Positions 5,861 to 60,950 of a stretch of 64,000 nt of DNA are shown one piece after another. How positions within the stretch are numbered: the first letter of the stretch is position 1; each line of letters starts with the position of its first letter. Below the pieces are notes generated by a model, which made no database searches, was not told the DNA's origin, and was given only the letters and a program-made list of their open reading frames with translations. The DNA comes from Flavobacteriales bacterium (lineage in GTDB: Bacteria; Bacteroidota; Bacteroidia; Flavobacteriales_G; Salibacteraceae), in assembly GCA_018609045.1 (NCBI GenBank), contig JABAYK010000009.1, positions 57,006-121,005 of the forward strand. Direction: 5' to 3'. A program made the translations under genes and the position numbers.

Positions 5861-5895
5861 CGCCATTCTTGCTTTTGCAAGAATGGCGTTTTGTT
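5861..5895 (+). terminator. intrinsic terminator / attenuator hairpin
   Basis: Perfect 12-bp stem cgccattcttgc/gcaagaatggcg (5861-5872 / 5877-5888) with a tttt loop, followed by ttttgtt. It lies directly between the stop at 5850 and the ATG at 5896. Confidence 0.55.
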
Positions 5896-7305
5896 ATGAA
5901 AAAGATAGGATTCATTTTTCTTTTAGGTGTTTTGTTAATTGGTTGTGATAAGGGCGAAAAATTTGAGAATAATCCCCCCGAAACACAATTGGCATTTGAA
6001 AGCATCAATTTAACTGGAGAAAACCGACTAAACTCCCAAGTAAGGTTAAGTTGGTTTGGTACTGATGTAGATGGTTACGTTAAAGGATATGAAATCTCTT
6101 TAAATAACCAAGATTGGAAATACGTAACCACCCAAGATAGTACCTTTGTTTTTCCACTTGAGCAAGGAAAAGATACAACCGATATCGATTTTTATGTTCG
6201 TTCAATTGATGATTTAGACCAAAAAGATGAAACCCCTGCCTACCTAAGAATCCCATTAAAAAATACTGCACCCGAAGTAAATTTTATTGCCTCTACCCTG
6301 CCAATTGACTCAAATCATTTGGTGGTTACATTTTCTTGGTTGGCTAAAGATTTAGATGGAGATGCATCTATTACAAATGCTTATTTAAAAGCTAATAATG
6401 GCGATTGGTTAGAAATTCCTTTAAATGCAAATGTTATTTCTTTAACGCCTGAAAACCCTTCAGCAAATGGAGTAACAAACGCAAAAATATACCACAATGG
6501 AAAATTTGACCCTTCTACCCTTTCTGGGTTTAACATAAATGGAGCAAATACATTGTACTTAAAAGTTGTAGATTTTGCAGGTGCTGAAAGCGAACCCGAC
6601 ACTTCAAACTCCTTTTATGTATCTGGTAAAAAAGAAAATATGTTGTTTATTTCTGGGCAAGATGAAGCAACAACAAACAAATACAAAGCCCTGCTTTCAA
6701 ACTCTAACTACGATTTTTTAGATTATAGTTTGGCCGATAAACAACCAAAATTTTGGGACCAAACATTTTCTCTTATCATCAATAATTACGAAGGATTATT
6801 TATCAACTCTGATGCAAATGTTTTTACAAATCCTTACAACCAAAGAAGTGCCTTGCTGCTAGAATTTATGGCGCCAAGTCTTCAAAAATATTTTAACAAT
6901 AACGGAAAAGCTTTTGTTACAACATCGTTTACATCTACAAGCGATATTACAAGTTTGTCTGAGGTTTTTCCTATAGACAGTATTTCAACTTCTAAAGGCC
7001 AAGCTAGGTTAGATCAAGATAGTGGTATTGTGGCTATTAACCAACCAACTTGGCCAAATGTTAACCCATCTTTTCTTATTGCGGGAGTTTCTCCCTTTCA
7101 TCCTACCCAAGATGCTGTGCCTCTTTACAAAGGCCAATTAAAAATTGGTGGAGGTTGGGTTGGCCCTAATGTAGTTGGAGCCAAAAGAAATTTAGGTGGG
7201 CAAACAAGTCAAATATTTTTCTCTGTGCAATTACATCAATTTGACAAAGACCAAACCGCTCAACAACAATTGCTAGAAAACATGTTAAACGAACTAGGCT
7301 TATGA
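5896..7305 (+). CDS. lipoprotein of unknown function
   Basis: The track ORF starts at 5869, inside the hairpin. ATG 5896 gives MKKIGFIFLLGVLLIGC, a lipobox. Two internal repeats share W-x-G-x-D-x-DG-like motifs (SWFGTDVDGYVKGYEISLNNQDW / SWLAKDLDGDASITNAYLKANNGDW). The stop overlaps the next start (ATGA). Confidence 0.65.
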   Translation: MKKIGFIFLLGVLLIGCDKGEKFENNPPETQLAFESINLTGENRLNSQVRLSWFGTDVDGYVKGYEISLNNQDWKYVTTQDSTFVFPLEQGKDTTDIDFYVRSIDDLDQKDETPAYLRIPLKNTAPEVNFIASTLPIDSNHLVVTFSWLAKDLDGDASITNAYLKANNGDWLEIPLNANVISLTPENPSANGVTNAKIYHNGKFDPSTLSGFNINGANTLYLKVVDFAGAESEPDTSNSFYVSGKKENMLFISGQDEATTNKYKALLSNSNYDFLDYSLADKQPKFWDQTFSLIINNYEGLFINSDANVFTNPYNQRSALLLEFMAPSLQKYFNNNGKAFVTTSFTSTSDITSLSEVFPIDSISTSKGQARLDQDSGIVAINQPTWPNVNPSFLIAGVSPFHPTQDAVPLYKGQLKIGGGWVGPNVVGAKRNLGGQTSQIFFSVQLHQFDKDQTAQQQLLENMLNELGL

Positions 7306-10124: not shown

Positions 10125-11122
10125 TGAGAAAGTTAATCCTACTCATATTGGTCCTTGGCGTTTTTGAAGTCTCAGCTCAAATCCTTCCAAATTATGGAGG
10201 ACAACGAGCCGGTTTATCAACTTTAAGTTTCCTAAAAAACGATGTTAGTCCGCGCTCTATGGCTATGTCTGGTGCAAGTGTGGCTTTAAACTTTGATGGC
10301 TACAACTTATTTTCAAATCCTGCCGCAATAACAGGAGCAGATGCTTTGGCTGTTTCTGCTTCAAATTTTGTGGTTGGCGCAGGCGTTCAACAAAGTTTTC
10401 TTTCTGGAGTTTTACCCATTCAAAAATCTCATTTTGGGCTTTCTATTAACTCTTTAAACTCAGGTGCAATGGAAGTTAGAACAGAGTTTCAACCCAATGG
10501 TACTGGAGAATTATTTTATGTTTCTAATTTGGCTACTGGACTAACCTATTCAAAAAAATTATCAGATATGTTTAGCATGGGGCTTACCATAAAATACATC
10601 TACGAGCAAATTGCCCAATACACTAATCATACTGCAACTGCAGACTTAGGATTTCTTTACAAAACTGATTTTAAAGATTTAAGATTTGCCGTTTTGGTGC
10701 AAAATTTTGGCGGCAACTCTTCTCTTTCAGGAGATTTTTTAGCAGTAGATTTTAACAGAGATTCTTCATCATTAGATTTAAACTCATATACAGTTCCTAC
10801 AGTATTTAAAATGGGGTTTTCAATGGTGCCATACAAAACAAAAACACAGTCGCTTTTAATTTCTGCCGAATTAAATCATCCTAACGACAATGCCGAAAAT
10901 TTTAGAGTTGGAGCAGAATATAATTACAGAGACTTGCTTTACGGAAGAATGGGGTATAAGTTTAGTGTTGAAGGTCAATCGTTTCCAAGCTTTGGAATCG
11001 GTTTAAGAAGTCAAATTGGGGCCCATCCTTTAAGAATAGATTATGCCATAAACCCAACAGACTTTTTTGGCATGCAACATTGCTTTGGATTGTATTTTCA
11101 ATTTAATAAAATGGAAAGATGA
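10124..11122 (+). CDS. PorV/PorQ-family-like outer-membrane beta-barrel protein
   Basis: 332 aa with a signal peptide. The N-terminal motif GLSTLSFLKNDVSPRSMAMSGASVAL...FSNPAAI resembles the PorV/PorQ family signature (recollection). Alternating beta-strand pattern. TAATG overlap with the upstream stop. Confidence 0.55.
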   Translation: MRKLILLILVLGVFEVSAQILPNYGGQRAGLSTLSFLKNDVSPRSMAMSGASVALNFDGYNLFSNPAAITGADALAVSASNFVVGAGVQQSFLSGVLPIQKSHFGLSINSLNSGAMEVRTEFQPNGTGELFYVSNLATGLTYSKKLSDMFSMGLTIKYIYEQIAQYTNHTATADLGFLYKTDFKDLRFAVLVQNFGGNSSLSGDFLAVDFNRDSSSLDLNSYTVPTVFKMGFSMVPYKTKTQSLLISAELNHPNDNAENFRVGAEYNYRDLLYGRMGYKFSVEGQSFPSFGIGLRSQIGAHPLRIDYAINPTDFFGMQHCFGLYFQFNKMER

Positions 11123-12351
11123 TGAAGTATACAAACCTAAAATACAATCTATATCCAATAAGGAGATTTAAATCGCTTTTAGGTCTTGTTTTGGCTTTAA
11201 TTTTTTCGATTTCTTTTTCGAGTTGCGAAAAATATTTTGGAAACAAAACTGATTTAGATTTTATTGAAAAGCCCGTTTTTCAAGCAAGAGATGTTGCTTA
11301 TGTTCCTATTCAGCCAATTTTAGATGGATTTGTTTACCCAACAGATGTTTTGGCAGGCTTTGATGAACTAATTTACATTGTTGATAACGGAACAGAAGAA
11401 ATTATCGCGCTAGACCAAGCCTTAACCGAACAAGGAAGATTCTCAGTACCAGGCGTAAAAAAAATAGCTCAAGACAGAAGTTTAGAATTATTGGCAATTG
11501 GCACCACAGATACAGTAGATGGTTTGGGGCAACCTTATACTTTGCAATGTATTTACCGAATAAATATGCAAAGTGGAAGTTCTTATGGAATAAAAAATGC
11601 AAAAATCATTAACAAAATTATTCACCCGTTTTATTTCAGAAATACAATTTCTAGCAACGATCCAACGGTAGAGTTTAACGATATTGCCATTCTTGCAACC
11701 AACGAATATTATGTTACCAGAAATGGCAACTCATCAAATATTGTTGGGCCCGACCAAGCTGTATTGTTGTTTAGCCCGCAAGATGTTTGGATTACACCCG
11801 TTAGTATTACATCCGGTGGAGCCACTTATAACGACTTTTTTAAAAGACCATTTGCGATTTCTAGCCGTGTTCAACCACCACAAATTTCAGTTGTAAACGA
11901 CAGAACTTTTTTGGTGACTTCAATTGATGAAAACGCAGTTTTGAAAATAAATGGCATACAAGTTCAAGAAGATGAAAACGGTATTGTGTATGTTCCTCAA
12001 GAATCTATTGTTGGAGATTACACCCAAGCTGATGATTTTTTACAAAGACCATTTCGCTTTAAAAAACCCGAAGGATTAACAATTACTGGTGATGGAACCA
12101 ATTTTATTTTCATAGTTGATGCCGAAACTGATTCATTACACCAATTTACTTCAAATGGATTAGAAGGAATAAAACCACCTCCTGGTTCAGCTGAAACCAA
12201 GTACATTAAAGCCTCTTTTGGAGGAACAGGCTCTGCTGCCAACCAATTTAACGAGCCAAAGGCAGTTGCCTATTTAAACAAGATTGTTTACGTAGCCGAT
12301 GCAGGAAACGGAAGAGTTTTGAGGTTTAAGCTTACGCTTGATTTTGATTAA
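11119..12351 (+). CDS. NHL-repeat-like beta-propeller lipoprotein
   Basis: 410 aa with a lipobox (FSISFSSC). NHL-like repeat at the C-terminus (NQFNEPKAVAYLNKIVYVADAGNGRVLRF) and similar earlier segments (DELIYIVDNGTEEI, FIFIVDAETDSLHQF). ATGA overlap with the upstream gene. Confidence 0.6.
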   Translation: MMKYTNLKYNLYPIRRFKSLLGLVLALIFSISFSSCEKYFGNKTDLDFIEKPVFQARDVAYVPIQPILDGFVYPTDVLAGFDELIYIVDNGTEEIIALDQALTEQGRFSVPGVKKIAQDRSLELLAIGTTDTVDGLGQPYTLQCIYRINMQSGSSYGIKNAKIINKIIHPFYFRNTISSNDPTVEFNDIAILATNEYYVTRNGNSSNIVGPDQAVLLFSPQDVWITPVSITSGGATYNDFFKRPFAISSRVQPPQISVVNDRTFLVTSIDENAVLKINGIQVQEDENGIVYVPQESIVGDYTQADDFLQRPFRFKKPEGLTITGDGTNFIFIVDAETDSLHQFTSNGLEGIKPPPGSAETKYIKASFGGTGSAANQFNEPKAVAYLNKIVYVADAGNGRVLRFKLTLDFD

Positions 12352-26678: not shown

Positions 26679-29600
26679 TTATTTCAAAATCAACCTTTTT
26701 AAGATTTTATTTCCTTCAGTGGTTGAAATAGAAATTAAATACATTCCTTTTTCAAGCTGATTCAAATCTAAAGTTTCTCTTAATTGATTTGTTGATGTTT
26801 CAAAAACCACACTTCCTAAAACATCTGAAATTGAAATTTTTCTTAGGGTTGAATTCTCAAAAACTATATTCAATTCTCCGTTTGAAGGATTCGGAAACAT
26901 CTCAAAATTTTGTTTATTAATCTCAGGTAAACCAACAGTTGAGTTTAAGGTTACTTGCAAAGTTTCATTACAATTATTGTAATCTGTTACAGTTACCGTG
27001 TAACTACCTCCTGCTAATCCGTTAACATCTTGTGTAGTTTGGCTTGTATTGCTCCAAGCATACTTGTACGGCAATGTTCCGCCAGTTACATTAATATCAA
27101 TTGATCCATTATTTCCAGGGTCGCTTTCAGAAACAGTATTGTTTAAAGTAACCACCAAAACCAAAGGCTCTGTAATTTGAACGGTTGTTAACACCGAATC
27201 CATATTGGCATCAACAACAGTTACAGCATATGTATTTGGGCAAAGGTTTGATGCCGTTGCCCCAGTTTGATTGCCAGTATTGGCATCCCAATAATAATTG
27301 TATGGTCCAACTCCACTTATACCTTGTACAGTTGCTTCACCATCACAATCACCATTGCATGTAATATCTGTTTTATTAGTAATGGTTGCTAATAAGTTAT
27401 TGCCTATTTTAAAAGCCACAGAAGTTATGTTACTTGTGCTATCATCTGCCTCTACAACCACAATTGGAAAAGTTTCGCCTTTGGCAAACCATCTAAACTG
27501 GTAAACAGTTTCAACAGTATTTAATTGAGGAATATTTTGCCATCCAAGCAAGGAGTGCCCCCAAATACTATCCATAGAAATTTGCTGTGTTCTTTGTCTA
27601 ATTGCACTGTAATTTCCAGCAGGAATTATCATATTTCCATATCCATCAATTTTACTGATATTGGTAATAATTCTTTTAACCCTAATTGAGTCGAATATTT
27701 GAACTGTGGTATCTAATGAGCTATCTATTACAGTTGTAGAAACAAAACTTTGACCAAACGAAATAGGAAACTCTAAATCTTTTAAAGAAGGATTAAACTG
27801 AATAGCAGCTAAACCTCCTAAACCAAAAGCATCGGCAACAATTCCTTCTACAACTAAACTTGATGAGGTTTTATTTACGTACGCTGTGTCATTTTTTCTA
27901 GCAATTACCAGGTTGGCATTGGGAAATTTCACGCCATTAACTGTATTGGCAGGATTCAAAAAGCTTATGGTATCTAAAGTTCCAATTTGAAGATTGTTAA
28001 AATTCCAATTTGTATTGCCAACAGAAGAAATATCAACATTCGGAATTGTAGGGTCAAATGCCAAATAAGCAACATCACCTGGTGCGCCAAACTCATTGCT
28101 GAAATAAGTGATTCCTTGGCTTACTCCTGAAAAAGGAACAAACACACTTAAAGTTGAAGAACAATTATTGGCATCAGTTACTGTTAGTGAGTAATTTCCA
28201 GTAGTTAAACCAAAAATATCTTGCATTGTATCTCCATTACTCCAAGCATAACTATAGGGAGAAGTACCTCCTGAAACTGTTGCATCAATAGCACCATCAT
28301 TTCCTGCTGAAGTTTCTGAAGTTACAGAAACCGTATCCGCTATTAATACTGAAGGCTGAGCAATGTTTCCTGATGCAATTGCAGAATCATTTGTTGCGTC
28401 ATAAACAGTTACAAAGAAGTTTCCAAAGCAAAGTCCGTTGGCTAAAGTATCGGTTTGGCTATTGCTCCACTTGTATGTATAAGGAGTTGCTCCCCCAGCA
28501 GCTATAACTTTAGCTTCCCCATCGCAAGTATTAAAGCAACTAGCATTATTTATAACAGTAGTTGAGGCGGTTAAACTTGCCGCTGCATTTGGCACAAAAA
28601 AGCTTAAACTATCCATACAACCATTTGCATCGGTTACAGTTAATGAGTAATTTCCAGTAGCTAAACCACTAATATCTTGAGAGGTATCAAGCGTACTCCA
28701 TAAATTACTGTATGGAGTTGTTCCTCCTGTTACATTCACATCAATAGCTCCATCGTTGCCAAAAGCACTTTCAGGGGTAATTAAATTAGTATCAATATTT
28801 AATGCTGCACTTGGTTGACTTAAATTAATTAATGAAGTTGCACTATCACCAAAAACATCATAAACAGTAACGTGGTAAAGTCCTGCGCAAAGTGCAGATG
28901 CAGTGTCATTGGTTTGATTTCCAGAGTTTGAAGACCACTGATAAGTATAAGGTTGTGTTCCGCCAACTACATCAACAATAGCAAAACCATCGCAGCTATT
29001 AAAACAGTTTGGGCCTTGAAAAACAGAAATAGAAGCAGACATATTTCCACCTAATAAAAATTTTGCAGAAGTAATATTTCCACCTGCGCCTGATACTTCG
29101 GCCTCAAAAACTTGGTATTTATTTAAAGAACTATACCAAATGTATTTATGGATTGTAGAGCTAGTAGTGGCATTTAATGGCGCCAAGGCCCAGGCTCCTC
29201 CAGTGGTATGAGTATATAAAGTATCAATTTGAGTTTCTACTCGATATTGTCTTATTGAGTTAAAAGTTCCGGCCGGAGTAGTGATAAAGCCATAACCATC
29301 AATTTTAGAATTGTAAATAATAGTTCTCTTTATTCTTATTGAATCGAAATTGAATAATGGAGGAATAACAATACTTGTATCTGTTGTGGTATCAATTACC
29401 GTTGAAACTAAAAATGAATCGAGATAAGTTGCAGGAAAATTTAATAAGGTTAAATCTGGATTAAAATTAACAGCATAAATATTTCCATCACCAAACAAAT
29501 CGCCTGCTTGGCCATCAATTGCTCTAAATCCAGCATTATTATTAAAATAAGTAAGGTCATTATCATTTCCAGTAACTTCTGTGGCAACAGGAAAAATAGT

Positions 29601-29846
29601 AGAGAAACCTGTAGTCTGTGGGTTTGCAAAGTAAATTGTATCTAAAACTCCGAAACCAATCGATGAGAAATTCCAAGTTTGCTGACCAGTACTTCCAACT
29701 GAAATACTCGCTGTTGGGTTGTTATTTACGGCCAAAAAAATACTATCGCCTATTGTGCCAAAATCTGAACTATTAACAGTTATTTGAGCTGTTGATTGTA
29801 AGGCAAAGGCTAATAAAAATAAAGAGTAAATTTTTTTCATATTCAA
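26679..29846 (-). CDS. large SprB-repeat cell-surface protein with T9SS C-terminal sorting domain
   Basis: 1055 aa with a signal peptide. Several SprB-type repeats (C..CDG.A.V...GG..PY.Y.W; GNDGAIDV.V.GGT.PYS..WS...T..DI.GL..GNYSLTVTDANGC). An internal duplication of a ~250-aa N-terminal module. C-terminal tail FEMFPNPSNGELNIVF...GMYLISISTTEGNKILKRLILK. Confidence 0.8.
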   Translation of the reverse strand: MNMKKIYSLFLLAFALQSTAQITVNSSDFGTIGDSIFLAVNNNPTASISVGSTGQQTWNFSSIGFGVLDTIYFANPQTTGFSTIFPVATEVTGNDNDLTYFNNNAGFRAIDGQAGDLFGDGNIYAVNFNPDLTLLNFPATYLDSFLVSTVIDTTTDTSIVIPPLFNFDSIRIKRTIIYNSKIDGYGFITTPAGTFNSIRQYRVETQIDTLYTHTTGGAWALAPLNATTSSTIHKYIWYSSLNKYQVFEAEVSGAGGNITSAKFLLGGNMSASISVFQGPNCFNSCDGFAIVDVVGGTQPYTYQWSSNSGNQTNDTASALCAGLYHVTVYDVFGDSATSLINLSQPSAALNIDTNLITPESAFGNDGAIDVNVTGGTTPYSNLWSTLDTSQDISGLATGNYSLTVTDANGCMDSLSFFVPNAAASLTASTTVINNASCFNTCDGEAKVIAAGGATPYTYKWSNSQTDTLANGLCFGNFFVTVYDATNDSAIASGNIAQPSVLIADTVSVTSETSAGNDGAIDATVSGGTSPYSYAWSNGDTMQDIFGLTTGNYSLTVTDANNCSSTLSVFVPFSGVSQGITYFSNEFGAPGDVAYLAFDPTIPNVDISSVGNTNWNFNNLQIGTLDTISFLNPANTVNGVKFPNANLVIARKNDTAYVNKTSSSLVVEGIVADAFGLGGLAAIQFNPSLKDLEFPISFGQSFVSTTVIDSSLDTTVQIFDSIRVKRIITNISKIDGYGNMIIPAGNYSAIRQRTQQISMDSIWGHSLLGWQNIPQLNTVETVYQFRWFAKGETFPIVVVEADDSTSNITSVAFKIGNNLLATITNKTDITCNGDCDGEATVQGISGVGPYNYYWDANTGNQTGATASNLCPNTYAVTVVDANMDSVLTTVQITEPLVLVVTLNNTVSESDPGNNGSIDINVTGGTLPYKYAWSNTSQTTQDVNGLAGGSYTVTVTDYNNCNETLQVTLNSTVGLPEINKQNFEMFPNPSNGELNIVFENSTLRKISISDVLGSVVFETSTNQLRETLDLNQLEKGMYLISISTTEGNKILKRLILK

Positions 29847-34147: not shown

Positions 34148-35829
34148 GCGTTGCTGATTGGATTGTAATGTTATCTACCCTATTTGGCATTGTGGCTTAT
34201 GGGGTTTGGAAAACCAGAAAAAGCACTGATATTCATGGTTATTTGCGTGGTGGAAATACCATGGGTTGGGCTGTAATTGGTTTATCGGTAATGGCAACTC
34301 AGGCAAGTGCAATTACGTTTATTTCTGCACCTGGGCAGGCTTACGAAAACGGAATGGCATTCGTACAAAACTATTTTGGTTTGCCATTGGCACTCATTAT
34401 TGTATCGGCTGTATTTATTCCAATTTACTACAGACTTAACGTATTTACAGCGTATGAATATCTGGAAAAAAGATTTGATTTAAACACTCGCCTTTTAGCC
34501 GCTTTCTTGTTTTTGGTGCAACGTGGTTTAGCAGCCGGAATAACAATTTATGCTCCTGCTATTATCTTATCTGCGGCATTGGGATGGAACTTAACTTTCA
34601 CCATTTTATTCGTAGGCTTTTTGGTAATTATTTACACGGTTTCTGGAGGCACCAAAGCAGTTAGCTTAACCCAAAAATGGCAAATGGGCGTTATTATGGC
34701 GGGAATGTTCATCGCGTTTTTCACCATTTTAAGCAAGTTTCCTGAGGGCGTTGGAATGACCGAGGGTTTGGAAATTGCAGGCGCTATGAACAGGCTAAAT
34801 ATTGTTGATTTCTCATTCGATTTAGATGTGCGCTATACATTTTGGAGCGGTATTACAGGAGGCTTGTTTTTAGCCCTTTCTTATTTCGGCACAGACCAAT
34901 CTCAAGTGCAACGCTATTTAGGCGGCAAATCGGTTAAAGAAAGCAGACTAGGCTTAATGTTTAACGCCTTGCTAAAAATACCTATGCAGTTTTTTATCCT
35001 GTTATGCGGAATAATGGTATTTGTGTTTTTTCAGTTTCAGCAACATCAAGTTTTGTTTGACCAAGCCTCTGTAAACCTAATTCAAAACTCAGAATATGCT
35101 GAAGAATTTCAAAAAGTAGAGGATAAACATCAGGCAAACTATGTAGAAAAGCAAAATGCTATACAAGGATATTTATCTGCAAAAGAAGGAGATAAAGAAT
35201 ACGCAAAAAGTGAATTACTCAAATATGACGATAAAGAAAAAGAAATAAGAAACGAGGCTAAGGATGTTGTTAGAAAGGCTTTTCCGGGTAACGATGCCAA
35301 AGACTCTGACTATGTATTCCTATCGTTCATATTAAACTATTTGCCAAAAGGATTGGTGGGATTGCTGTTGGCTGTGATTATTTCGGCAGCTATGTCGTCT
35401 ACTTCAGGAGAGCTTAATGCATTGGGCACCACCACCATGATTGACTTTTACAAACGGTTACTCAAGAAAAATGGCTCAGAAAGGTATTATGTAAATGCTT
35501 CTAAAATTATTACAGCAATTTGGGGTTTTATAGCAATAGGATTCGCTTTGGTGGCTAATTTATTAGAAAACCTAATAGAGGCCGTAAACATTTTAGGCTC
35601 ATTATTTTACGGAACTATTTTAGGGATATTTATTGTAGCTTTTTTCTTAAAGCGAGTTGGAGCCTTTGCAGTTTTTTACGCTGCAATTGTTGCTGAACTT
35701 TTGGTAATTGGAGTCTTTTTCTTTTACTCAGATGTTATTGCTTATTTATGGCTAAACGTAATAGGTTGTTTTTTGGTAATCCTTCTTTCTACTCTTATCA
35801 ATAATCTTAGGAGTTTTATTAGATCTTAG
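34144..35829 (+). CDS. sodium:solute symporter (SSS family)
   Basis: Track ORF 34123..35829. ATG 34144 gives MSVADWIVMLSTLFGIVAYGVWKTRKS, typical of the SSS family. About 13 TM segments and a GGTKAV-type motif (YTVSGGTKAVSLTQKWQ). Confidence 0.85.
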   Translation: MSVADWIVMLSTLFGIVAYGVWKTRKSTDIHGYLRGGNTMGWAVIGLSVMATQASAITFISAPGQAYENGMAFVQNYFGLPLALIIVSAVFIPIYYRLNVFTAYEYLEKRFDLNTRLLAAFLFLVQRGLAAGITIYAPAIILSAALGWNLTFTILFVGFLVIIYTVSGGTKAVSLTQKWQMGVIMAGMFIAFFTILSKFPEGVGMTEGLEIAGAMNRLNIVDFSFDLDVRYTFWSGITGGLFLALSYFGTDQSQVQRYLGGKSVKESRLGLMFNALLKIPMQFFILLCGIMVFVFFQFQQHQVLFDQASVNLIQNSEYAEEFQKVEDKHQANYVEKQNAIQGYLSAKEGDKEYAKSELLKYDDKEKEIRNEAKDVVRKAFPGNDAKDSDYVFLSFILNYLPKGLVGLLLAVIISAAMSSTSGELNALGTTTMIDFYKRLLKKNGSERYYVNASKIITAIWGFIAIGFALVANLLENLIEAVNILGSLFYGTILGIFIVAFFLKRVGAFAVFYAAIVAELLVIGVFFFYSDVIAYLWLNVIGCFLVILLSTLINNLRSFIRS

Positions 35830-36688
35830 TGCTCCACTCTTTCATCAAATAATCAATTTCATCTTTTACCTCATTTTGCTGAAAAGCATTTAAGTACCTA
35901 TCTTTTTGCAAAACCATTTTGGCCTTTTCCATTTCCTTAACTGCCTTATCAAAATTGTTTGATTTAGCGTAAAATTTGGCTAACCAAAAATAACCTTCCC
36001 AATTTCTTGGGTCTTGTTCAACTACTAATCTTAACCAATTTTCAGGCTCTTGGCTATCAATATTTGCTTCAATAGAATACTTTGAGGCTAAAAGGAACTT
36101 TTTGGTTTCTTTTTTATTTGCCTTACTTAAGTCTTTTACCATTTTATCATAAAAATCATCATCATTAATTCCAATGGTCAAAAAGAAGGTTTGATCACCT
36201 AAAACAAAGGTTACTGCACTGTAATTCAATCCGCCTTGATTTGGCATTACCATAAACGATTGTCCTTGAACTCTACATTCAAACTCAGGAAGCCTTTCAA
36301 GTGGGAATGAAAATACTTTTATACCTTCTTCAGCGCGCAATTCATCCTCATTTAAATCATTTGGTAAGTCTTCAGGCTCAAGAACCAAATAAACTTGATC
36401 TTCTAACATTTTGAAACCTCCTATATAATTCCCTTTTGGCAAATTCATTTCACTGAAGCTCATGTCTTTATTGGTTCTAACAATAAAATAGGTTCTTCCT
36501 CCAGGGTAATATGCTTTATCTGCTTGTAAAATTGTTTCAATCGGCTCTTCAATCGAAATAGCCTTGAAGGTAAATTCTACTTCGCCTGTGCCAACTCTTT
36601 GAAAAACCGTAAATGATGGATTTGAAGTTGGAATTTGAGCAAAAACTAAACTTGGAATTAAAGCTAAAAGAAACAATATTTTTTTCAT
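35819..36688 (-). CDS. secreted/lipoprotein-like protein, possible DUF2911-like beta domain plus C-terminal TPR; last gene of the MNIO operon
   Basis: The track ORF extends to 36709. ATG 36688 gives MKKILFLLALIPSLVFAQ, a signal peptide. C-terminal TPR-like helix pair (WEGYFWLAKFYAKSNNFDKAVKEMEKA). Same strand as the DUF2063 gene, 39 nt downstream of it. Confidence 0.55.
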   Translation of the reverse strand: MKKILFLLALIPSLVFAQIPTSNPSFTVFQRVGTGEVEFTFKAISIEEPIETILQADKAYYPGGRTYFIVRTNKDMSFSEMNLPKGNYIGGFKMLEDQVYLVLEPEDLPNDLNEDELRAEEGIKVFSFPLERLPEFECRVQGQSFMVMPNQGGLNYSAVTFVLGDQTFFLTIGINDDDFYDKMVKDLSKANKKETKKFLLASKYSIEANIDSQEPENWLRLVVEQDPRNWEGYFWLAKFYAKSNNFDKAVKEMEKAKMVLQKDRYLNAFQQNEVKDEIDYLMKEWSTKI

Positions 36689-36727
36689 AACTAATTTTTG
36701 TGCGGGCAAATCTAATGATTTGAGACT

Positions 36728-37480
36728 CTATTTGGATGCTTCAAAAAGAATTCCTTTGTGAGAAAGTTGGTTAAAAAATGTTAGAACTTGTTTTTGTAAG
36801 TTTTCAGATTGAGCCTCGTTATTTTGTTGAGTTAATATCTCCAAGAATTCACCTAAAGTTAAATTTTCAGTTTGCAGTAGAAATTGTATTACGCCTAAAC
36901 CAAATTTTGAAACAGCCATAAAATGTACTTTAAAATCAGAAACTCCTCTGTAAATTACCATTGGGTATTCAGCTTTTTGACTCAACCATTCTTCTGGTAA
37001 GAATTTATGATAGGGATAATTTAAATTGATGCTTTTTAAGTAGGGATTTAATCGTAAGCTACTTATGGCATTTCCTTGAAAAGGCATTAACCCTTCAGTA
37101 GAAGTATCTTTTTGGGTGTGAACTTCTATTTCTAACCATTCGAAGTAGAGTAATTCTGATAAATAAGATGGGTTTAAATCAACCTGATTTGAGGTTTTAA
37201 ACCAATTGCAAAACTCTAAAGGCAGTTTCCAAACTTGAGGTGTTTTACAATTATGACTATTAAAAAACTCATTCACCAAAGCTTTAAAACTTTCAATTCC
37301 TATAGCTTTTTGAGCGATAGGAAACGCCTGTTGCATTATACCCAATACAACATAAAAAACCAGTCTGCGGTATTGAAAAACATGTTGTGGGTTTGATAAA
37401 ATTAAATCTTGCTTTTCTCCAGTACGTGAATATTGGGCTAGTTTACTTTGTTGGTTTATGGTTTCTGGTTTAAGCATCAA
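36728..37480 (-). CDS. DUF2063-family RiPP maturation partner protein (HvfC/BufC/MbnC-like)
   Basis: 250 aa. N-terminal DUF2063-like pattern (FQYRRLVFYVVLGIMQQAFPIAQKAIGIESFKALVNEFF). The start overlaps the DUF692 gene end by 11 nt. Confidence 0.75.
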   Translation of the reverse strand: MMLKPETINQQSKLAQYSRTGEKQDLILSNPQHVFQYRRLVFYVVLGIMQQAFPIAQKAIGIESFKALVNEFFNSHNCKTPQVWKLPLEFCNWFKTSNQVDLNPSYLSELLYFEWLEIEVHTQKDTSTEGLMPFQGNAISSLRLNPYLKSINLNYPYHKFLPEEWLSQKAEYPMVIYRGVSDFKVHFMAVSKFGLGVIQFLLQTENLTLGEFLEILTQQNNEAQSENLQKQVLTFFNQLSHKGILFEASK

Positions 37481-38291
37481 CTTCCTCTTGGTTTGTAATT
37501 TTGTGAAGTTGTGTTAACTCTCTTTTTAACTCATTTATTTCAGGGAAATTAAAATCGCGCTCTAACAAAACAGGTGAATTATTAAGCTTTGGATAAACCC
37601 ATTTTAAAAGTTCATAAACTGGGTCAATTATAGCTTCGCCATGCGTGTCTATAATTAAATCATCAGCTACTTTTTCATGACCAGCCATGTGAATATAACT
37701 TACTTTTTCGAGTGGTAAATTATTGATAAAATCTTTGGTATTGTAACCATGATTAAAGGCATTTACATAAATATTATTTACATCTAAAAGTAAATTACAA
37801 TTTGATTTATTTACGATTTCAGAAATAAATTCATGCTCCTTCATTTCTGCTGCAACTGCAGTGTAGTAGGATACATTTTCGATTGCCAAAGGCATTTCTA
37901 AATAATCTTGCACTACTTTAATGCGCTCAGCGATATGGATAACAGCATCTTGCGTAAACGGAATTGGCAATAAATCGTATAAATGTGCATTGTCGCACTT
38001 GCTGTAAGACAAATGCTCAGAGTAAATTTTTATATCGTATTGTTTGATGAAGGCTTTGATCTTTTTTAAGAAATCAAAATCTAATTCATCTGGACTTCCA
38101 ATACTTAGAGATAAGCCATGTAACGATATAGGGTATTTTTCTGCGGCTTCATCTAGTTTGGCTCGCCAGTACCCGCCCATATCAATCCAGTTTTCAGGAG
38201 CCAATTCAATAAAATTTGGCGAAGGATTTACCATGCCAATAATTTCATCGGCAATATCTCTTCTAAATCCTATTCCAACTCCTTTTACCAT
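37470..38291 (-). CDS. DUF692 / MNIO-family (MbnB/BufB/HvfB-like) RiPP peptide maturase
   Basis: ATG 38291 gives MVKGVGIGFRRDIADEI. The track start at 38306 lies inside the upstream hairpin. DUF692 hallmarks: FIELAPENW, LHGLSLSIGS, YSEHLSY, LAIENVSYY, LLLDVNNIYVNAFNHGY, YIHMAGH. Confidence 0.85.
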   Translation of the reverse strand: MVKGVGIGFRRDIADEIIGMVNPSPNFIELAPENWIDMGGYWRAKLDEAAEKYPISLHGLSLSIGSPDELDFDFLKKIKAFIKQYDIKIYSEHLSYSKCDNAHLYDLLPIPFTQDAVIHIAERIKVVQDYLEMPLAIENVSYYTAVAAEMKEHEFISEIVNKSNCNLLLDVNNIYVNAFNHGYNTKDFINNLPLEKVSYIHMAGHEKVADDLIIDTHGEAIIDPVYELLKWVYPKLNNSPVLLERDFNFPEINELKRELTQLHKITNQEEVDA

Positions 38292-38325
38292 AAATAAAAA
38301 CGTCATTCTAAATTAAGAATGACGT
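38292..38325 (-). terminator. hairpin + U-tract (partial terminator/attenuator) between precursor and maturase genes
   Basis: 10-bp perfect stem acgtcattct/agaatgacgt (38300-38309 / 38316-38325). On the minus-strand transcript it is followed by UUUUUAUUU and then the maturase ATG. Confidence 0.5.
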
Positions 38326-38359
38326 GTAAATTTAAATTGATTTTATGTTGTTCTGTGGA

Positions 38360-38758
38360 TTAATTTCCACATTTACCTTCACCACATTTATGCTCCCCAG
38401 TTTTTCCTTCGGCTTTTGGGGTTGCTTTTTCTCCTTCTGCTTTTTTCTCTTCACCACATTTACCTTCACCACATTTGTGCTCGCCAGTTTTCTCAGCAGC
38501 TTTCGTTTCGGCTTTTTCTCCTTCTGCTTTTTTCTTTCCCTCTCCGCAAGTTCCTTCACCGCATTTCAACTCTATAGTTGCATTGATAAAAGCTGGAGAG
38601 TTTAAATTGGCTTCTAGAATATTGCTTCTTAAATCAGAACCAGTTCCTAAATCTTCGGTATTAAATAAGTTTTCAGCGTTAGCATCTACACTTAAAAGTG
38701 ATAAAGAGCTTAACATAATTGTTCCAGCAGCAAGATTTTTTAGTTTGTTGGTTTTCAT
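38360..38758 (-). CDS. HvfA-like RiPP precursor: Sec-signal peptide plus three KCGEG(K/T)CG motifs (predicted metallophore)
   Basis: 132 aa. Signal peptide MKTNKLKNLAAGTIMLSSLSLLSVDANA. C-terminal Lys/Glu/Gly-rich core has Cys only at 66, 71, 96, 101, 125 and 130, always as K-C-G or x-C-G within CGEG(T/K)CG. An 87-nt (29-codon) tandem duplication is present (38367-38405 vs 38454-38492). It lies immediately upstream of the DUF692/DUF2063 genes. Confidence 0.75.
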   Translation of the reverse strand: MKTNKLKNLAAGTIMLSSLSLLSVDANAENLFNTEDLGTGSDLRSNILEANLNSPAFINATIELKCGEGTCGEGKKKAEGEKAETKAAEKTGEHKCGEGKCGEEKKAEGEKATPKAEGKTGEHKCGEGKCGN

Positions 38759-38844
38759 GACATTTTTAGATTTTGAGTTAATTTCAATCGAATGTAAGTA
38801 ACCTTATTTCCTAATAGTGTCACAATTTATACAAATTCAACTAA

Positions 38845-49722: not shown

Positions 49723-52560
49723 TTAAAGGTCATTCAACTCTACCAACAAACTGATATAGGCCATTCGGCCAACTCTTGGCCCACCATAAACTTGGTAAAC
49801 TTTATTATTGAGTAAGTTGCTTGCCCCAATTTTTAGGGTAGATTTTAGCTTAGTAAAGTAAACATTGGCTTGGGCATCTAGCAGTCCATAGCTGGGAATA
49901 AATCCTGTAAACTGTGGAGAACCTTCAAACACAAAACCTTCAACCCATTTGTAATTCACATTGAAGCCAACATTTTTTAAATAGAATGCAGACCAGTTTT
50001 CGTTTATTCTTTCTAGTATTTCAATTCGTTGGGTAATTTTTGTACCTGAAAAGCCAAGATTGAATTTGTGTTCAGGGGTATTAAATGCAGGAATAATTGG
50101 ATCGTTTGTATCTGCCCTACTTAATACATTCCAAGAGTAATTTCCGTAAAGCGAATAAAACTTTTTGAAAAAATAGCTTACGCCTATGGCAAAACCTTGG
50201 GTGTTTACAATGTTAGTAGAGTTGGCCGCAACCCTGTAAACTTGGTTGCTAGTTAAAAGATTTGTAGTAGAGTCAAAAGTGGCATCAGCACCTAAATTAA
50301 AGCCCAAAAAGTTTTTATACCAGCTGTAATAATAGCTTGCATCAATAAAAATATCTTTAAAAATAGTACCCTTATAACCTAACTCAAGGGTTCTTACTTG
50401 CTCAGGTTTTACAGGGGCTACACTAAAAAATTCGAGTGTATCAATATTAACTGTACTATAATAATCTTGCAGAGATTCTATGGTAATTAAATTATCAAAA
50501 CCATCAATATTGCCGACTAAGAGAGCTCTTCCCACATTATAATACAGATATTGGTCTTGTAAGGTTGGGTTTCTAATGGCAGACGAAAAAGAAAAGCGGG
50601 CAACATTATTTTCATCAATGTTATAAACTGCTGATGCAGCGGGAGAAAAAACATAATCAAAATTTCTGTTTTTGTCCATCCGCGTAGTAGCTGTTAGAAT
50701 TAAATTATCGTTTAAAATTCTTTTTTTCAAACTTAGATATGAACCAAATTCTTCGTTGGTAATTACCCTATTATTAGTATCAGAGAATATGGTTCCTTGC
50801 GAATTTGGGGTATAAATTCTATAGCTGCCACCAATTAAAATATCCATAAAGGTCGGAGTAAACTTATACTCGCCTTGTATATGCGTTAAAGATGATTTAT
50901 CATAAAACCTTGAACCTCCTTCAGCAAAAGTGTTGCGGGAGGTAATGTGATTAAAAACTGAATCGAATTTTGCAGTGCCAGGTACAAAATATGGCAGTGT
51001 GCCAGGTTTATTGGCCAATGAATCTGCAAATTGCCTAGCCTCTAAATGCCATTTTACCAAAGAGTCAGAAAATTGAGCATAAACATTTTCTGCAGCTTGA
51101 TAGGTGGAATCTCTTACATCAGGATTAAACCAAATTTGTGGATTAAATCTAGGATCAGGAAAACCTTCTAAACCCCAAACTTTGGGTCTAGCTTGTTGCA
51201 ACCAATAAGTATTGTAACTATTTGACCAACTTGTATTTGATTGAGCAGAATCTTGCATTAGTAATGCTGTAAATACAGCATCATACGAGTTCCCTGCATC
51301 TTCAGAAGTTCTATAAGCCCTAATAAAAAACTTATCTTTTTGTCTAACCTCTACTCTATGTTGTTGGAACCTAATACCTTTTAAACTATACCGGTTATCG
51401 CCTTGATAAACAGTAGTTCCTGTTCCATAATTGAAGGCATAAATGGCTTCAATATCTTTGGTGATTTTAAAATGTGCAGCAGAGCTTAATTTCAAGTTTT
51501 CAGTATCATAATCAACTAAATCTGTTTCTCTGTAACCAGATCTGTGATAAATCCCTAATCCTGGAAAGTTTCTTTTTCCATAATCGCTTGTAAAATTATT
51601 TGCTCCTGAGGAGAGGTTTTCATCCCCATAAATATTTACCGCATCAAAACCTCCTGGGTTATTTTCATCAGCAAGCGATTGCTCGGTTGCATCGTAGTTG
51701 TCAGCTTCCCAATCATCAGCCGTTAAATAAGCTACGTTTAATTTAAATCCAAAGCCTCTTCCTTTTTCATTTTCCCAACCTTTGGCATATCTCCCCATAA
51801 CTTCTCTTAGGTTTCTTTCACCTAATCGAGTTTGTACTGAAAGCCCTTGAAAATCGAATGGACTTTTGGTTTCCATATCTATAACACCATTAAAAGCGTT
51901 TGGTCCGTAAATTCCACTGCTTGCGCCAACTATTAGTTCTACCCTTTTTATATCAAGTTCTGATGCACCCAAAAAGTTACCTAACGAGAAATTTAAACCA
52001 GGAGCTTGGTTGTCTACCCCATCAATTAATTGTAATGACCTAACAGGGCTTGTGCTGTTAAAGCCGCGTGTATTGATAATTTTAAAACCTAAACTTGCAG
52101 AAGTTAAATCTACTCCTTTTAAGTTCCCTAAACCTTCATAAAAGTTGGCAGATGGTGTTTCCTTTATCATCAAAACATCCATAGATTCAACTGTTAATGC
52201 CGATTCTTTTTGTTTTTCGGTTAACCTACTTTCTACAATATCAAAAGTTTCTAGTTGAACTGCGCTTGGTTCTACAATAATATTGATTTTATCTCCGAAA
52301 TCATTTACCTGCAATTTTACTTCGTCATATCCTAAAAATTTAACAACAATAGTAAATGGAAGAGGTTGTTTGGTTTGAAAACTAAATTTCCCATCAAAAT
52401 CGGTTACACCTCCGTTAGTTGTGCCTTCGATAACAACACTTGCGCCAATAACAGTTTCACCAGTTGACTTATCAATTATTTTACCCGAAACAGTTCCTTG
52501 CCCAAAAGCTTGAACAAAAGAAAATATAGAAATTGCAAAAAGGAAGAATAGTTTTTTCAT
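49723..52560 (-). CDS. TonB-dependent receptor with carboxypeptidase-regulatory-like domain
   Basis: 945 aa with a signal peptide. GTVSGKIIDKSTGETVIGASVVIEGT... domain. Plug motifs (FKIINTRGFNSTSPVRSLQLIDGVDNQAP). Long barrel region. Confidence 0.85.
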   Translation of the reverse strand: MKKLFFLFAISIFSFVQAFGQGTVSGKIIDKSTGETVIGASVVIEGTTNGGVTDFDGKFSFQTKQPLPFTIVVKFLGYDEVKLQVNDFGDKINIIVEPSAVQLETFDIVESRLTEKQKESALTVESMDVLMIKETPSANFYEGLGNLKGVDLTSASLGFKIINTRGFNSTSPVRSLQLIDGVDNQAPGLNFSLGNFLGASELDIKRVELIVGASSGIYGPNAFNGVIDMETKSPFDFQGLSVQTRLGERNLREVMGRYAKGWENEKGRGFGFKLNVAYLTADDWEADNYDATEQSLADENNPGGFDAVNIYGDENLSSGANNFTSDYGKRNFPGLGIYHRSGYRETDLVDYDTENLKLSSAAHFKITKDIEAIYAFNYGTGTTVYQGDNRYSLKGIRFQQHRVEVRQKDKFFIRAYRTSEDAGNSYDAVFTALLMQDSAQSNTSWSNSYNTYWLQQARPKVWGLEGFPDPRFNPQIWFNPDVRDSTYQAAENVYAQFSDSLVKWHLEARQFADSLANKPGTLPYFVPGTAKFDSVFNHITSRNTFAEGGSRFYDKSSLTHIQGEYKFTPTFMDILIGGSYRIYTPNSQGTIFSDTNNRVITNEEFGSYLSLKKRILNDNLILTATTRMDKNRNFDYVFSPAASAVYNIDENNVARFSFSSAIRNPTLQDQYLYYNVGRALLVGNIDGFDNLITIESLQDYYSTVNIDTLEFFSVAPVKPEQVRTLELGYKGTIFKDIFIDASYYYSWYKNFLGFNLGADATFDSTTNLLTSNQVYRVAANSTNIVNTQGFAIGVSYFFKKFYSLYGNYSWNVLSRADTNDPIIPAFNTPEHKFNLGFSGTKITQRIEILERINENWSAFYLKNVGFNVNYKWVEGFVFEGSPQFTGFIPSYGLLDAQANVYFTKLKSTLKIGASNLLNNKVYQVYGGPRVGRMAYISLLVELNDL

Positions 52561-52619: not shown

Positions 52620-54107
52620 TTATTTTAAAATAAGCTTCTGAATTACGGTTGTTTCACCAACTTCTGCATTGATTAAATAAAAACCACTTGGTAAATTATT
52701 TCTATCAATTACAACTCTATTTTGGTTGTTGGCTTGAACTGTTAAAACGCTTTTACCTGTAATATCAAATAATTGTACAGTTTTTAAACCTGCTTTTGAT
52801 TTTAAAACCACAAACTCATTGGCTGGGTTTGGTGCTATAGTTAGGTCAAATGATTCAGCTTCAGGAGCATCTACACTAGACGGGTTTGTATTACCTGGTA
52901 AACCTAAAACATTTACTGCTCTTGGGCAGAAATAACCCATTATTGTATCGATATACAATAAAGCCTTTGGTTTAGAAGCTACAGGATTTGCAGCAGAACC
53001 AAAACCAGTACCATTTGGTGGCTGAACAGTATTTGGATCACTTGAACTATACCAACCCCAAGGCTCAAAACCGTTTGCAGCACCAGGAAAAGGATATAAA
53101 CCATAAGCAGCTGATCTGCTTCTAGCTTCAACTGAAATAGCATCAGTTAAACTCATTTCATTCCAATCTTGGTTGCCTAATCTTGTTGCTCTTAAAGATA
53201 GGTCTAAACTTCCACTAACCTCAACAATTGGGTCTCCGGTTGAAGCAACAATTACAATAGCAGTATTGTAGGGAGTTAATGCATCCGCTACACCATGAAA
53301 AGAAATCATTGGCACTTCACCTGCTTCAATCCATGAGCTATCGCCCATTGCGCCACCCATGTTTAAAATCATTTGTGGGTCTGAGTCATAACCTGGGTGA
53401 TTATAGTAAGCAAAACCTGCTGTACCATTATCTCCATCAAAATCTCCCCAAATTGCGGTATTTACATAAGGCGCGCCATTGCCATCTAAAAATTTAAATA
53501 AATTCAATTCAGATGATTTATCCAAAGCACCTGTAGCTAAAGCAGCATAACCACCAGAATTAGAACCACCTAAAACCACTTTGTCTGGATCAATTTTGAA
53601 CATATTGGCAGTTGCTGCATCCTTTCTGAAATACCTTACAGCAGCTTTTCCATCTTGCATAGATTTATAAACTGCATTAATAATTGTGCTTGCTTTTTCC
53701 TCTTGATTTCCTAGTGGATTCCATCCTAATCTGTAGTTAATAGCAGCTGCAACATAACCTCTTTGGGCAAACTGCTTGCAAATTTCCACCAAACTTGAGT
53801 CGTTTTTGTTACCAAATGGCAAAGTATTTAAACCCTTTGGCAAGAAACTTCCTGCATGCATCATAATAATTAACGGACGCTCACCCATGGTATCATTCAA
53901 AGGTTCATAAACATCCATTTTTAAAGAATCAACTGGTAAAGGAGGGGTTCCACCCCAGCCTAATACTGTGTGATTCCAACCATAAGTTACATTTGAAGTA
54001 ACTTTAACATCTGTAAAAACTTTGTCTTTAAATCGATCTTGAGCAGAAAGAGTTGTGCTTGCGATTAATCCAAAAACAATAAGATAACTTGTAATTAATT
54101 TATTCAT
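52620..54107 (-). CDS. secreted alpha/beta hydrolase (esterase/lipase-like) with T9SS C-terminal sorting domain
   Basis: 495 aa with a signal peptide. HAGSF and GGSNSGG (GxSxG) motifs. C-terminal tail LTIAPNPANEFVVLK...GFYLINAEVGETTVIQKLILK. Confidence 0.75.
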   Translation of the reverse strand: MNKLITSYLIVFGLIASTTLSAQDRFKDKVFTDVKVTSNVTYGWNHTVLGWGGTPPLPVDSLKMDVYEPLNDTMGERPLIIMMHAGSFLPKGLNTLPFGNKNDSSLVEICKQFAQRGYVAAAINYRLGWNPLGNQEEKASTIINAVYKSMQDGKAAVRYFRKDAATANMFKIDPDKVVLGGSNSGGYAALATGALDKSSELNLFKFLDGNGAPYVNTAIWGDFDGDNGTAGFAYYNHPGYDSDPQMILNMGGAMGDSSWIEAGEVPMISFHGVADALTPYNTAIVIVASTGDPIVEVSGSLDLSLRATRLGNQDWNEMSLTDAISVEARSRSAAYGLYPFPGAANGFEPWGWYSSSDPNTVQPPNGTGFGSAANPVASKPKALLYIDTIMGYFCPRAVNVLGLPGNTNPSSVDAPEAESFDLTIAPNPANEFVVLKSKAGLKTVQLFDITGKSVLTVQANNQNRVVIDRNNLPSGFYLINAEVGETTVIQKLILK

Positions 54108-60717: not shown

Positions 60718-60862
60718 GATTTGTTGTGTTTATTAATCTATTTTCAGTTTTTAAAGTTTACAAATATAATTTTCTGTTAAAAGAAGAAATGATTTATATC
60801 AATTTAGTTCAATCAAGAACTTATTTTTTAATTATTAATCCTTTTCAAATAAAAATCACCTG

Positions 60863-60950
60863 CGGAGAGGGAGGGATTCGAACCCTCGATACGCTTTTGA
60901 CGTATACACGCTTTCCAAGCGTGCGCCTTCAGCCACTCGGCCACCTCTCC
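60863..60950 (-). tRNA. tRNA-Ser (anticodon GGA)
   Basis: The reverse complement folds by hand into a cloverleaf. Acceptor GGAGAGG/CCTCTCC, 3-bp D stem GCC/GGC, anticodon stem CACGC/GCGTG with loop TTGGAAA. Long variable arm ATACG/CGTAT. T arm GAGGG-TTCGAAT-CCCTC. Discriminator G. CCA is not encoded. Confidence 0.9.

Follow-up and report, generated by a model that had tools for sequence, protein, structure and literature searches.

A minimal hvfABC-type captophorin cassette in a Flavobacteriales genome

Main finding

The window analysed here, a 64-kb stretch of the Flavobacteriales contig JABAYK010000009.1, carries on its minus strand (38844..36728) the genes hvfA-hvfB-hvfC, which very probably (rough probability 0.82) form a captophorin cassette with three genes, of oxazolin/fontiphorin type, making a thiooxazole-containing, Cu(I)-binding peptide. 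The captophorins (oxazolin, fontiphorin, gonophorin and the bufferins) are a very large and recently recognised class of ribosomal copper-binding peptides, the characterised examples of which are all from Pseudomonadota. In the following, A is the hvfA-type precursor gene, B the gene for the hvfB-type multinuclear non-haem iron oxidative enzyme (MNIO), C the hvfC-type partner gene, and D a gene for a secreted protein downstream. L-numbers (L001-L094) refer to loci or contigs of relatives compared with the window, and the FCB group is taken as Bacteroidota and allied phyla.

Every sequence-testable feature that defines the captophorin/Buf_EGKCG-oxazolin class (HvfABC, FonABC, NgoABC) was identified in the cassette, i.e. 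a precursor with a signal peptide and EGKCG-type units, an adjacent MNIO of the HvfB/FonB clade with its metal ligands and specificity residues, and a DUF2063 partner whose adjacent gene overlaps, and is translationally coupled with, that of the MNIO. A DoxX gene, frequent but not universal in clusters of the family, was missing. Gene content, family membership, ligand and specificity residues, substrate-motif fit, the conserved hairpin and the cassette boundaries were all read directly from the window and its relatives. On the basis of curated hidden Markov models (HMMs), whose matches lie well outside chance level, residue checks and the literature, the locus is consistent with the first-pass annotation, in which an MNIO (DUF692) and a DUF2063 protein were taken to form an HvfABC-like operon for a Sec-exported, Cys-derived metal-binding member of the peptides that are made by ribosomes and then modified post-translationally (RiPPs).

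Gene order and translation starts

Four co-directional open reading frames (ORFs) had been proposed for the minus strand, and all four are present both in the ORF listing and in the raw sequence: A (38360..38758, 132 aa), B (37470..38291, 273 aa), C (36728..37477, 249 aa) and D (35819..36688). B has an alternative ATG at 38306, but this is placed within the 3′ arm of the A-B hairpin, and the start at 38291 is accordingly more plausible. Two starts are also possible for C. With the ATG at 37477, which was called as the start in L083 (a contig 98% identical to the window), C overlaps B by 8 nt (ATGCTTAA); the TTG at 37480, with which alone the 11-nt overlap reported earlier is obtained, is no more likely. 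Translation of D starts at the ATG at 36688; the TTG at 36709 suggested by the ORF listing falls inside a promoter-like box. The gap between C and D is 39 nt long, and no terminator-like site was found in it.

The backbone order is S9 peptidase - ABC-F - [A-B-C] - D - <SSF symporter - <PIG-L - <FtsX - <RbfA - SprB. The GC percentage of the cassette (31-36%) compares with 32-40% in the flanks, and the GC profile shows no island signature.

The precursor peptide

The N-terminus of A (MKTNKLKNLAAGTIMLSSLSLLSVDANA|ENL) combines a basic n-region with a hydrophobic h-region of 16 residues and a c-region of A-x-A form (A-N-A, residues 26-28), and is predicted to be a signal peptide of aa 1-28 (38758..38675) with signal peptidase I cleavage after A28. 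A signal peptide on the precursor is typical of the class (PMC12452194). The core (aa 63-131; 38572..38366) contains six Cys residues, one in each of the 5-mers ELKCG, EGTCG, EHKCG, EGKCG, EHKCG and EGKCG, in this order, and each Cys has Gly at +1, K or T at -1, and E at -3, which is position 1 of the unit. Since this pattern fits the substrate rules of FonBC, by which Gly after Cys is strongly preferred and K or T before Cys is tolerated (PMC13097082, section 12), all six Cys residues are plausible modification sites, which agrees with the earlier estimate of up to six modified Cys.

The precursor matched the NCBIfam model NF050137 (KCGExKCG_twice, HvfA family) with 28.4 bits against a cut-off of 19.5, placing it in the Lys-Cys/EGKCG group of captophorins. 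The window proteins were also compared directly with the sequences of the characterised Fon, Ngo and Hvf proteins, taken from the supplement of PMC13097082; A was 40% identical to FonA (E 9e-21), and the comparison with HvfA returned an E-value of 3.5e-17. A Pfam scan of A found no domain, hence no DUF2282 match. Homologous precursors in public databases are mostly labelled as 'hypothetical' or 'low-complexity protein'.

Between signal peptide and core, A contains the motif F-x3-(D/E)-L-G-x-G-x-(D/E)-(L/V)-R at aa 32-44 (38627..38665; LG..R core at 38650..38627), the FCB-group form of which is (F/Y)-x3-(D/E)-L-G-(S/T)-G-x-(D/E)-(V/L)-R-x2-L, with G38 and R44 invariant in 64/64 FCB-group precursors. 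The F-x3-DLGxG part is shared with FonA and is absent from HvfA and NgoA. The LGxGxxxR-type segment is a candidate for recognition by a RiPP recognition element (RRE); in FonA, Ala scanning found no single leader position to be essential (PMC13097082, section 12).

In the precursor of L081 (L081:5917-6309), the closest syntenic relative, the middle double unit reads KCGEGKVGE, with Val in place of one of the six Cys, so the number of modifiable Cys varies between close relatives. The ORF of this precursor had been called from an internal Met, giving 116 aa rather than about 130.

MNIO enzyme and partner protein

The proposed DUF692 enzyme was confirmed by the HMM search, in which B matched PF05114 (MbnB_TglH_ChrH) with an E-value of 4.5e-100 (334.7 bits) and passed the NCBIfam HvfB equivalog model NF003818 (387.9 bits, cut-off 360). 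The scores were below cut-off for BufB (NF050167, 273.1 vs 310), MbnB (TIGR04159, 59.4 vs 325; E 3.9e-16), ChrH (NF050165, 74.1 vs 600) and ApyH. The best solved relative was PDB entry 3BWW (E 3.7e-78), a Histophilus somni enzyme 72% identical to HvfB (bioRxiv 10.64898/2026.07.17.739211). Identity of B was 47% to FonB, 46% to NgoB and 41% to HvfB, for all of which the formation of 5-thiooxazole has been shown experimentally (PMC13097082).

The metal ligands H58, H93, E138, D170, N173, H201, H205, D215, H217 and E244 do not vary among the aligned FCB-group B proteins (81/81). Three of them, N173, D215 and H217, are the counterparts of the site-3 residues N175, D242 and H244 of HvfB, mutation of which abolishes activity (bioRxiv 10.64898/2026.07.17.739211). 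In addition, R10/R11, D246 and F247 of B align with R15/R16, D249 and F250 of FonB, that is, with the gatekeeper and Glu-binding pair R15-R16, the catalytic base D249, and the marker residue F250 of Lys-Cys-type enzymes (PMC13097082, section 14).

The partner C contains the domains PF09836 (DUF2063/HvfC_N; 44.9 vs 27.2) and PF22106 (NGO1945_C/HvfC_C; 35.8 vs 27), and was assigned as an RRE-containing partner of the DUF2063/PME1 kind. In direct comparison, C and FonC shared 28% identity over 130 aa (E 1e-12). C evolves much faster than B: in relation to L081, C is 57% and B 81% identical, and across 76 FCB-group loci the corresponding ranges are 26-37% and 61-68%. Only 19 residues of C are conserved in at least 97% of the sequences, including Y37, R38, W84, E114, W115 and E117. 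A phmmer search of the PDB with C returned nothing significant, although a DUF2063 structure (3DEE) exists, because C is too divergent.

Comparison with characterised systems

The closest characterised counterpart is FonABC of Fontimonas thermophila (PMC13097082), which has the same A-B-C core, a Sec signal peptide, the F-x3-DLGxG motif and repeated EGKCG-type units; FonB shares the R-R and D-F residues and all iron ligands with B, and among characterised partners FonC alone is detectably similar to C. The differences are in the host (Pseudomonadota in the case of FonABC, Flavobacteriales in the window), the number of modifiable Cys (seven in FonA, six in A), and the units of A, which unlike those of FonA are separated by long K/E/A-rich linkers and include the variants ELKCG, EHKCG and EGTCG. 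Moreover, LGxG is followed by an invariant x-(D/E)-(L/V)-R in FCB-group precursors, and by YMVA in FonA.

HvfABC(X) of nontypeable Haemophilus influenzae (PMC11252979; bioRxiv 10.64898/2026.06.05.730506) has a like precursor layout, in which a signal peptide and an N-region are followed by three double units with six modified Cys, and the HvfC_N and HvfC_C domains of HvfC are both found in C. An insertion of roughly 23 residues in HvfB is missing from B, and the C38-C43 disulfide (Cys-x4-Cys) of the HvfA N-region is missing from A, which has the LGxGxxxR motif there. The Haemophilus DoxX protein HvfX has no counterpart in the window.

With the BufABC systems of Caulobacter and others (Buf1/DUF2282, Buf2; PMC11626156, PMC12452194) the window cassette has in common the enzyme superfamily cluster, a PME-type-1 partner, 5-thiooxazole as the expected modification, the Sec signal and the logic of periplasmic copper sequestration. 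Genes for an extracytoplasmic function (ECF) sigma factor with its anti-sigma factor, and for DoxX, occur in bufferin clusters and FCB-group relatives alike. The precursor A is neither of DUF2282 nor of Cys-Lys type, and at the position of FonB F250, where bufferin-type enzymes have Asp, B has the Phe that marks the Lys-Cys group. MbnABC resembles the cassette in its MNIO fold with a diiron site, in its ribosomal peptide substrate with Cys as the target, and in its copper-binding product. It differs in its partner (MbnC versus DUF2063/PME1), its precursor (leader-type MbnA versus signal peptide) and its product chemistry, which is oxazolone/thioamide (PMC13097082), and genes for MbnT, MbnM and MbnN are lacking.

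Three further class assignments were tried and rejected: bufferin Buf1, on the BufB score given above and a precursor without Pfam match; methanobactin, on the MbnB score, the DUF2063 partner and the signal-peptide precursor; and chryseobasin (ChrAHI), on the ChrH score.

Distribution and presence/absence of the cassette

A scan of species-representative genomes with B retrieved 80 loci of 63-70% identity, nearly all from the FCB group: Bacteroidota (Flavobacteriales, Chitinophaga, Bacteroidales, Sphingobacteriales), Ignavibacteriota, Chlorobiota and Calditrichota. The genome-neighbourhood comparison across Bacteroidota that had been recommended for the locus showed the order A-B-C in at least 76/80 related loci; L004, from the cultivable relative Salibacter halophilus, is one with A-B-C. 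The usual architecture in the relatives is ECF sigma - ~90-aa Cys-x2-Cys protein - A - B - C - DoxX. The ECF sigma factor (PF04542, about 198 aa) was present in 42/80 loci (e.g. L006, L010, L011, L014, L015, L018), at a distance of roughly 1 kb on the upstream side of the precursor gene, and was followed, often with overlapping stop and start codons, by the ~90-aa Cys-x2-Cys protein. The latter was counted in 48/80 loci, has weak zf-HC2 similarity and is presumably an anti-sigma factor. The partner C was found in 76/80 loci, and DoxX after C in 41/80. The window cassette is the minimal A-B-C form of this architecture.

Variants were seen on both sides of the core. In L001-L003, L007-L009 and L017 (Ignavibacteriota/Chlorobiota) a CoA-binding-domain protein (PF13380, 136 aa) replaces the zinc-finger-like gene upstream of A, and in L048, L053 and L061 a HEAT-repeat protein of about 251 aa is encoded directly downstream of C. 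FCB-type B proteins (64-67% identical) were also found in metagenome-assembled genomes labelled 'uncultured Akkermansia sp.' and 'Candidatus Saccharibacteria bacterium' (L019, L067); these labels may reflect binning errors or lateral transfers.

Within the uncultured Flavobacteriales lineage of the window, some members have the cassette and others lack it at exactly this site. Occupied sites, with hvfC directly upstream of D, were found in the window, L083/84, L081/82, L025, L087/88 and L091. In the empty sites of L085, L086, L089, L090 and L092-94, which lack hvfABC, the D start lies 49-60 nt beyond the ABC-F stop codon, and it is these empty sites that define the boundaries of the cassette. 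The empty-site locus L090 is nearer to the window in backbone divergence than the occupied L025, and so occupancy is not monophyletic; repeated loss or recombinational gain of the cassette is possible. Alignment of the empty ABC-F/D spacer with the two spacers of the window was ambiguous at such divergence, and no scar or direct repeat was identified in it. This polymorphism at one site offers natural, isogenic-like comparisons for the ecological role of the peptide.

Points against the assignment, and novelty

Several results weigh against a captophorin cassette of the oxazolin/fontiphorin type. The only NCBIfam match of C was HvfC, with 113.9 bits under the cut-off of 142, and BLAST comparison of C with HvfC and NgoC gave no significant match, FonC alone being detectable; the sub-threshold score is explained by the fast divergence of C. 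Likewise, A reached only 19.7 bits with the strict HvfA equivalog NF050188 (cut-off 95), because the core region alone aligns. The proposed check against DUF2063 and the NCBI HvfA/B/C models therefore came out in part, with PF09836, PF22106, HvfB and KCGExKCG passing, and HvfC and the strict HvfA model remaining under cut-off. DoxX, the ECF sigma factor and the ~90-aa Cys-x2-Cys protein were all missing from the whole window, but the absence of DoxX is not disqualifying, since such clusters are reported to carry these genes 'in various combinations' (PMC12452194). A scan of 20 other window proteins turned up none related to copper, so that the copper role is drawn entirely from homology. Finally, in the literature searched no Bacteroidota member of the captophorin class has been characterised experimentally.

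The last point had been raised earlier as a claim of novelty, and for the captophorin class it holds in the literature searched, but the novelty was overrated. The class has been counted as >3,000 HvfA-like sequences (PMC11252979), about 2,000 Buf_EGKCG proteins (PMC12452194) or 21,424 precursors (PMC13097082), and 173 MNIO-PME1 clusters of Bacteroidota, including 76 of Flavobacteriales, are already listed (PMC13097082, Table S3). ChrH, of another MNIO subfamily, has been characterised in Bacteroidota (PMC13056109). NCBIfam models already name these proteins, and a current annotation pipeline would label the genes correctly. The window cassette clearly belongs to a family described only recently, is ordinary among its members, and leaves the picture of that family unchanged. 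It is mildly interesting for its minimal architecture, divergent partner, conserved A-B hairpin and one-site presence/absence polymorphism. A Flavobacteriales example would carry captophorin biochemistry to another phylum, and with a divergent partner, and without DoxX or a dedicated sigma factor, the cassette would be a natural test of whether DoxX is dispensable.

Hairpin and promoter-like sequences

The gap between A and B contains a perfect 10-bp hairpin (38325->38300) with a 6-nt loop, followed by TTTTTATTT, the whole element covering 38290..38325 on the minus strand. Its folding free energy is -15.8 kcal/mol (z = -4.3), and none of the 200 shuffled sequences folded equally well (0/200), which bears out the hairpin with U-tract that had been noticed here before. 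The stem is retained in L081 with one compensatory change (T-A to C-G) and two G-U wobbles. A hairpin with T-tract was present in 33/62 A-B gaps of related loci (L001-L080), in comparison to 5/62 same-length segments inside B and a mean of 1.35/62 shuffled gaps, and the stem sequences are unrelated between loci and lineages. The element may act as a partial terminator or as an mRNA stabiliser, which would probably keep the precursor mRNA above the enzyme mRNA.

The intergenic region from the ABC-F stop to hvfA (38759..38844, minus strand) holds a block conserved with L081, which includes a near-consensus (7/8) Bacteroidetes -7-like box, TGAATTTG at 38839..38832 and TGGTTTTG in L081. According to the alignment with L081 and a motif scan, the box is located at -81/-82 in the window and L081; it is a candidate promoter only. 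The strict pattern TTTG-N17-23-TAnnTTTG had two matches in the window, fewer than expected by chance, and none near the cassette. A sigma-70 promoter scan returned 18 sites, with 12.4 expected, and was uninformative because the promoter consensus of Bacteroidota differs from the sigma-70 pattern.

Predicted maturation and role of the peptide

For the window, each step of the following scheme, i.e. chemistry, export, copper binding and physiological role, is drawn from relatives by homology. The 132-aa pre-HvfA would be translated with its Sec signal peptide and bound in the cytoplasm by a heterodimer of HvfB and HvfC. HvfB would use O2 and a mixed-valent Fe(II)/Fe(III) (diiron) cluster, which in the relatives is formed only with HvfC (bioRxiv 10.64898/2026.07.17.739211), and each of the six Cys-Gly pairs would be oxidised by four electrons to a 5-thiooxazole (PMC13097082; bioRxiv 10.64898/2026.06.05.730506). 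The expected mass loss is 4 Da for each Cys and 24 Da for all six, and the product should have a chromophore near 305 nm. Sec export and cleavage, as shown for relatives (PMC11252979, PMC12452194), here after A28, would then release a periplasmic product of roughly 104 aa, in which thiooxazole pairs would bind Cu(I), most likely sequestering excess copper.

Among the alternatives, the one that fares best leaves the chemistry as it is and makes the peptide a chalkophore for copper acquisition, as methanobactin is, instead of a periplasmic buffer. Both acquisition and buffering have been discussed for oxazolin (PMC11252979), and there are TonB-dependent receptors in the window, although at distances of about 11 kb and >26 kb from the cassette. 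No TonB-dependent receptor, exporter or periplasmic binding protein is encoded adjacent to it, the MbnB model scored 59 against a cut-off of 325, and the precursor bears a Sec signal peptide in place of a cleavable leader plus exporter. Sec substrates of Bacteroidota that have neither the C-terminal domain of the type IX secretion system (T9SS) nor a lipobox should remain periplasmic, and such retention is expected of this precursor. As copper excess or oxidative stress moreover induces the characterised relatives, which confer protection against copper (PMC11626156; PMC13097082, section 11), an acquisition role is considered unlikely, and sequestration is the preferred reading.

Gene D as a neighbour of the cassette

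The gene D (35819..36688, minus strand) had been counted as the fourth gene of the operon. In that reading it would take the place of DoxX as a dedicated component, serving for instance as receptor or chaperone of the modified peptide in the periplasm. In favour of this, D runs in the same direction as hvfC and is separated from it by the short gap free of terminator-like sites, the order A-B-C-D is retained in L081, L083, L025 and L087/88, and D matches tetratricopeptide repeat (TPR) folds, by fold comparison only. TPR domains commonly bind peptides.

The protein has the signal peptide that had been noted before, and its reported TPR tail is supported as TPR-like only, by sub-threshold Pfam matches (E <= 1), AlphaFold and Foldseek. 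In the AlphaFold model (predicted local distance difference test, pLDDT, 83) the signal peptide is followed by a beta domain at residues 25-173 and by six helices at 177-286, which resemble three TPR units. Foldseek comparison of the model with the PDB returned TPR proteins only, matching the C-terminal helices (110 residues) at an E-value of about 4e-3, and gave no informative match for the N-terminal beta domain. The family is rare: only two homologues were found in an index of 5.8 billion proteins, and an exhaustive HMMER scan of 1.84 billion representatives (1.84e9) with the N-terminal domain retrieved about 9 clusters, all of 270-285 aa; the gene surroundings of every one of them were recovered.

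D is not part of the captophorin system and belongs to the chromosomal backbone. This follows from the empty-site relatives, where homologues of about 23-40% identity (L085, L086, L089, L090, L092-94) follow ABC-F without hvfABC, from a -7 box of its own, and from an allele swap. The box, TAGATTTG or TAAATTTG (TAnnTTTG), was found 25-30 nt upstream of the D start in 8/10 D-bearing loci, with or without hvfABC (window, L081, L083, L025, L087, L090, L091, L092), against a background of 0.5 TAnnTTTG per kb per strand. In the window the box is the exact TAGATTTG at 36707..36714 on the minus strand, 26 nt upstream of the ATG, and its conservation in occupied and empty sites argues for D as a transcription unit of its own. 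The swap is seen in the metagenome contig L091, where the hvfC 3′ end is 100% identical to that of the window and the SSF symporter gene 94-99%, while the body of D (L091:208-958 vs window 35858-36636) has 36-55% DNA and 27% protein identity at an unchanged beta-domain and TPR architecture; in strains that are otherwise near-identical, this suggests the replacement of an allele, or diversifying selection acting on a secreted protein. D is also the fastest-evolving gene of the block (62% identical to L081 and 41% to L090, in comparison to 90% and 80-84%, respectively, for the S9, ABC-F and SSF genes), and it was missing from 79/80 other hvfABC loci fetched from genomes.

The four-gene operon is therefore very improbable, and already largely refuted. 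Read-through from hvfC into D is possible since no terminator was found between them, and is the sole remaining link of D to the cassette. On this link a combined scenario can be built, in which the minimal cassette needs neither DoxX nor the ECF pair, and D is read through and has been secondarily co-opted as a periplasmic partner of the thiooxazole peptide, its allele turnover arising from selection on an exposed surface or on the contact with the peptide; this is given an equally small chance.

Product chemistry and state of the cassette

Oxazolone/thioamide pairs, as in methanobactin, had been named as the products of HvfBC. This corresponds to the original assignment for HvfA (PMC11252979), and the loss of 4 Da and absorption in the near-UV are common to oxazolone/thioamide and 5-thiooxazole. 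The claim has been overtaken, however, by the reassignment of the HvfBC product, oxazolin, to 5-thiooxazole in 2026 by two groups (PMC13097082; bioRxiv 10.64898/2026.06.05.730506 and 10.64898/2026.07.17.739211), which makes the Hvf chemistry that of the bufferins and leaves methanobactin as the outlier. With B being 41-47% identical to 5-thiooxazole enzymes and its MbnB match far under cut-off, oxazolone/thioamide formation in the window is scarcely credible.

Just as implausible is a decaying, non-functional remnant heading for loss, to which the presence/absence polymorphism, the missing DoxX and regulator genes and the Cys lost from the L081 precursor might point, as the ORFs of A, B and C are intact with all catalytic residues kept, A and B are 81% identical to L081 beside 90% in the backbone, consistent with constraint, and the A-B hairpin is preserved by a compensatory change.

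Genomic context

Around a TonB-dependent receptor gene, the regions 1455-3617, 5869-7305 and 10124-12351 contain four ORFs (720, 478, 332 and 410 aa) with no Pfam match at E <= 1e-5. The remaining content fits Bacteroidota/Flavobacteriales, with four T9SS C-terminal-domain proteins, one of them with SprB repeats, two TonB-dependent receptors of CarboxypepD_reg type and a BamA-like POTRA protein; the coordinates of these context features, together with the tRNA, are 117-5850, 26679-29846, 52620-54107, 7302-10124, 49723-52560 and 60862-60950. The sole RNA gene of the window is tRNA-Ser(GGA).

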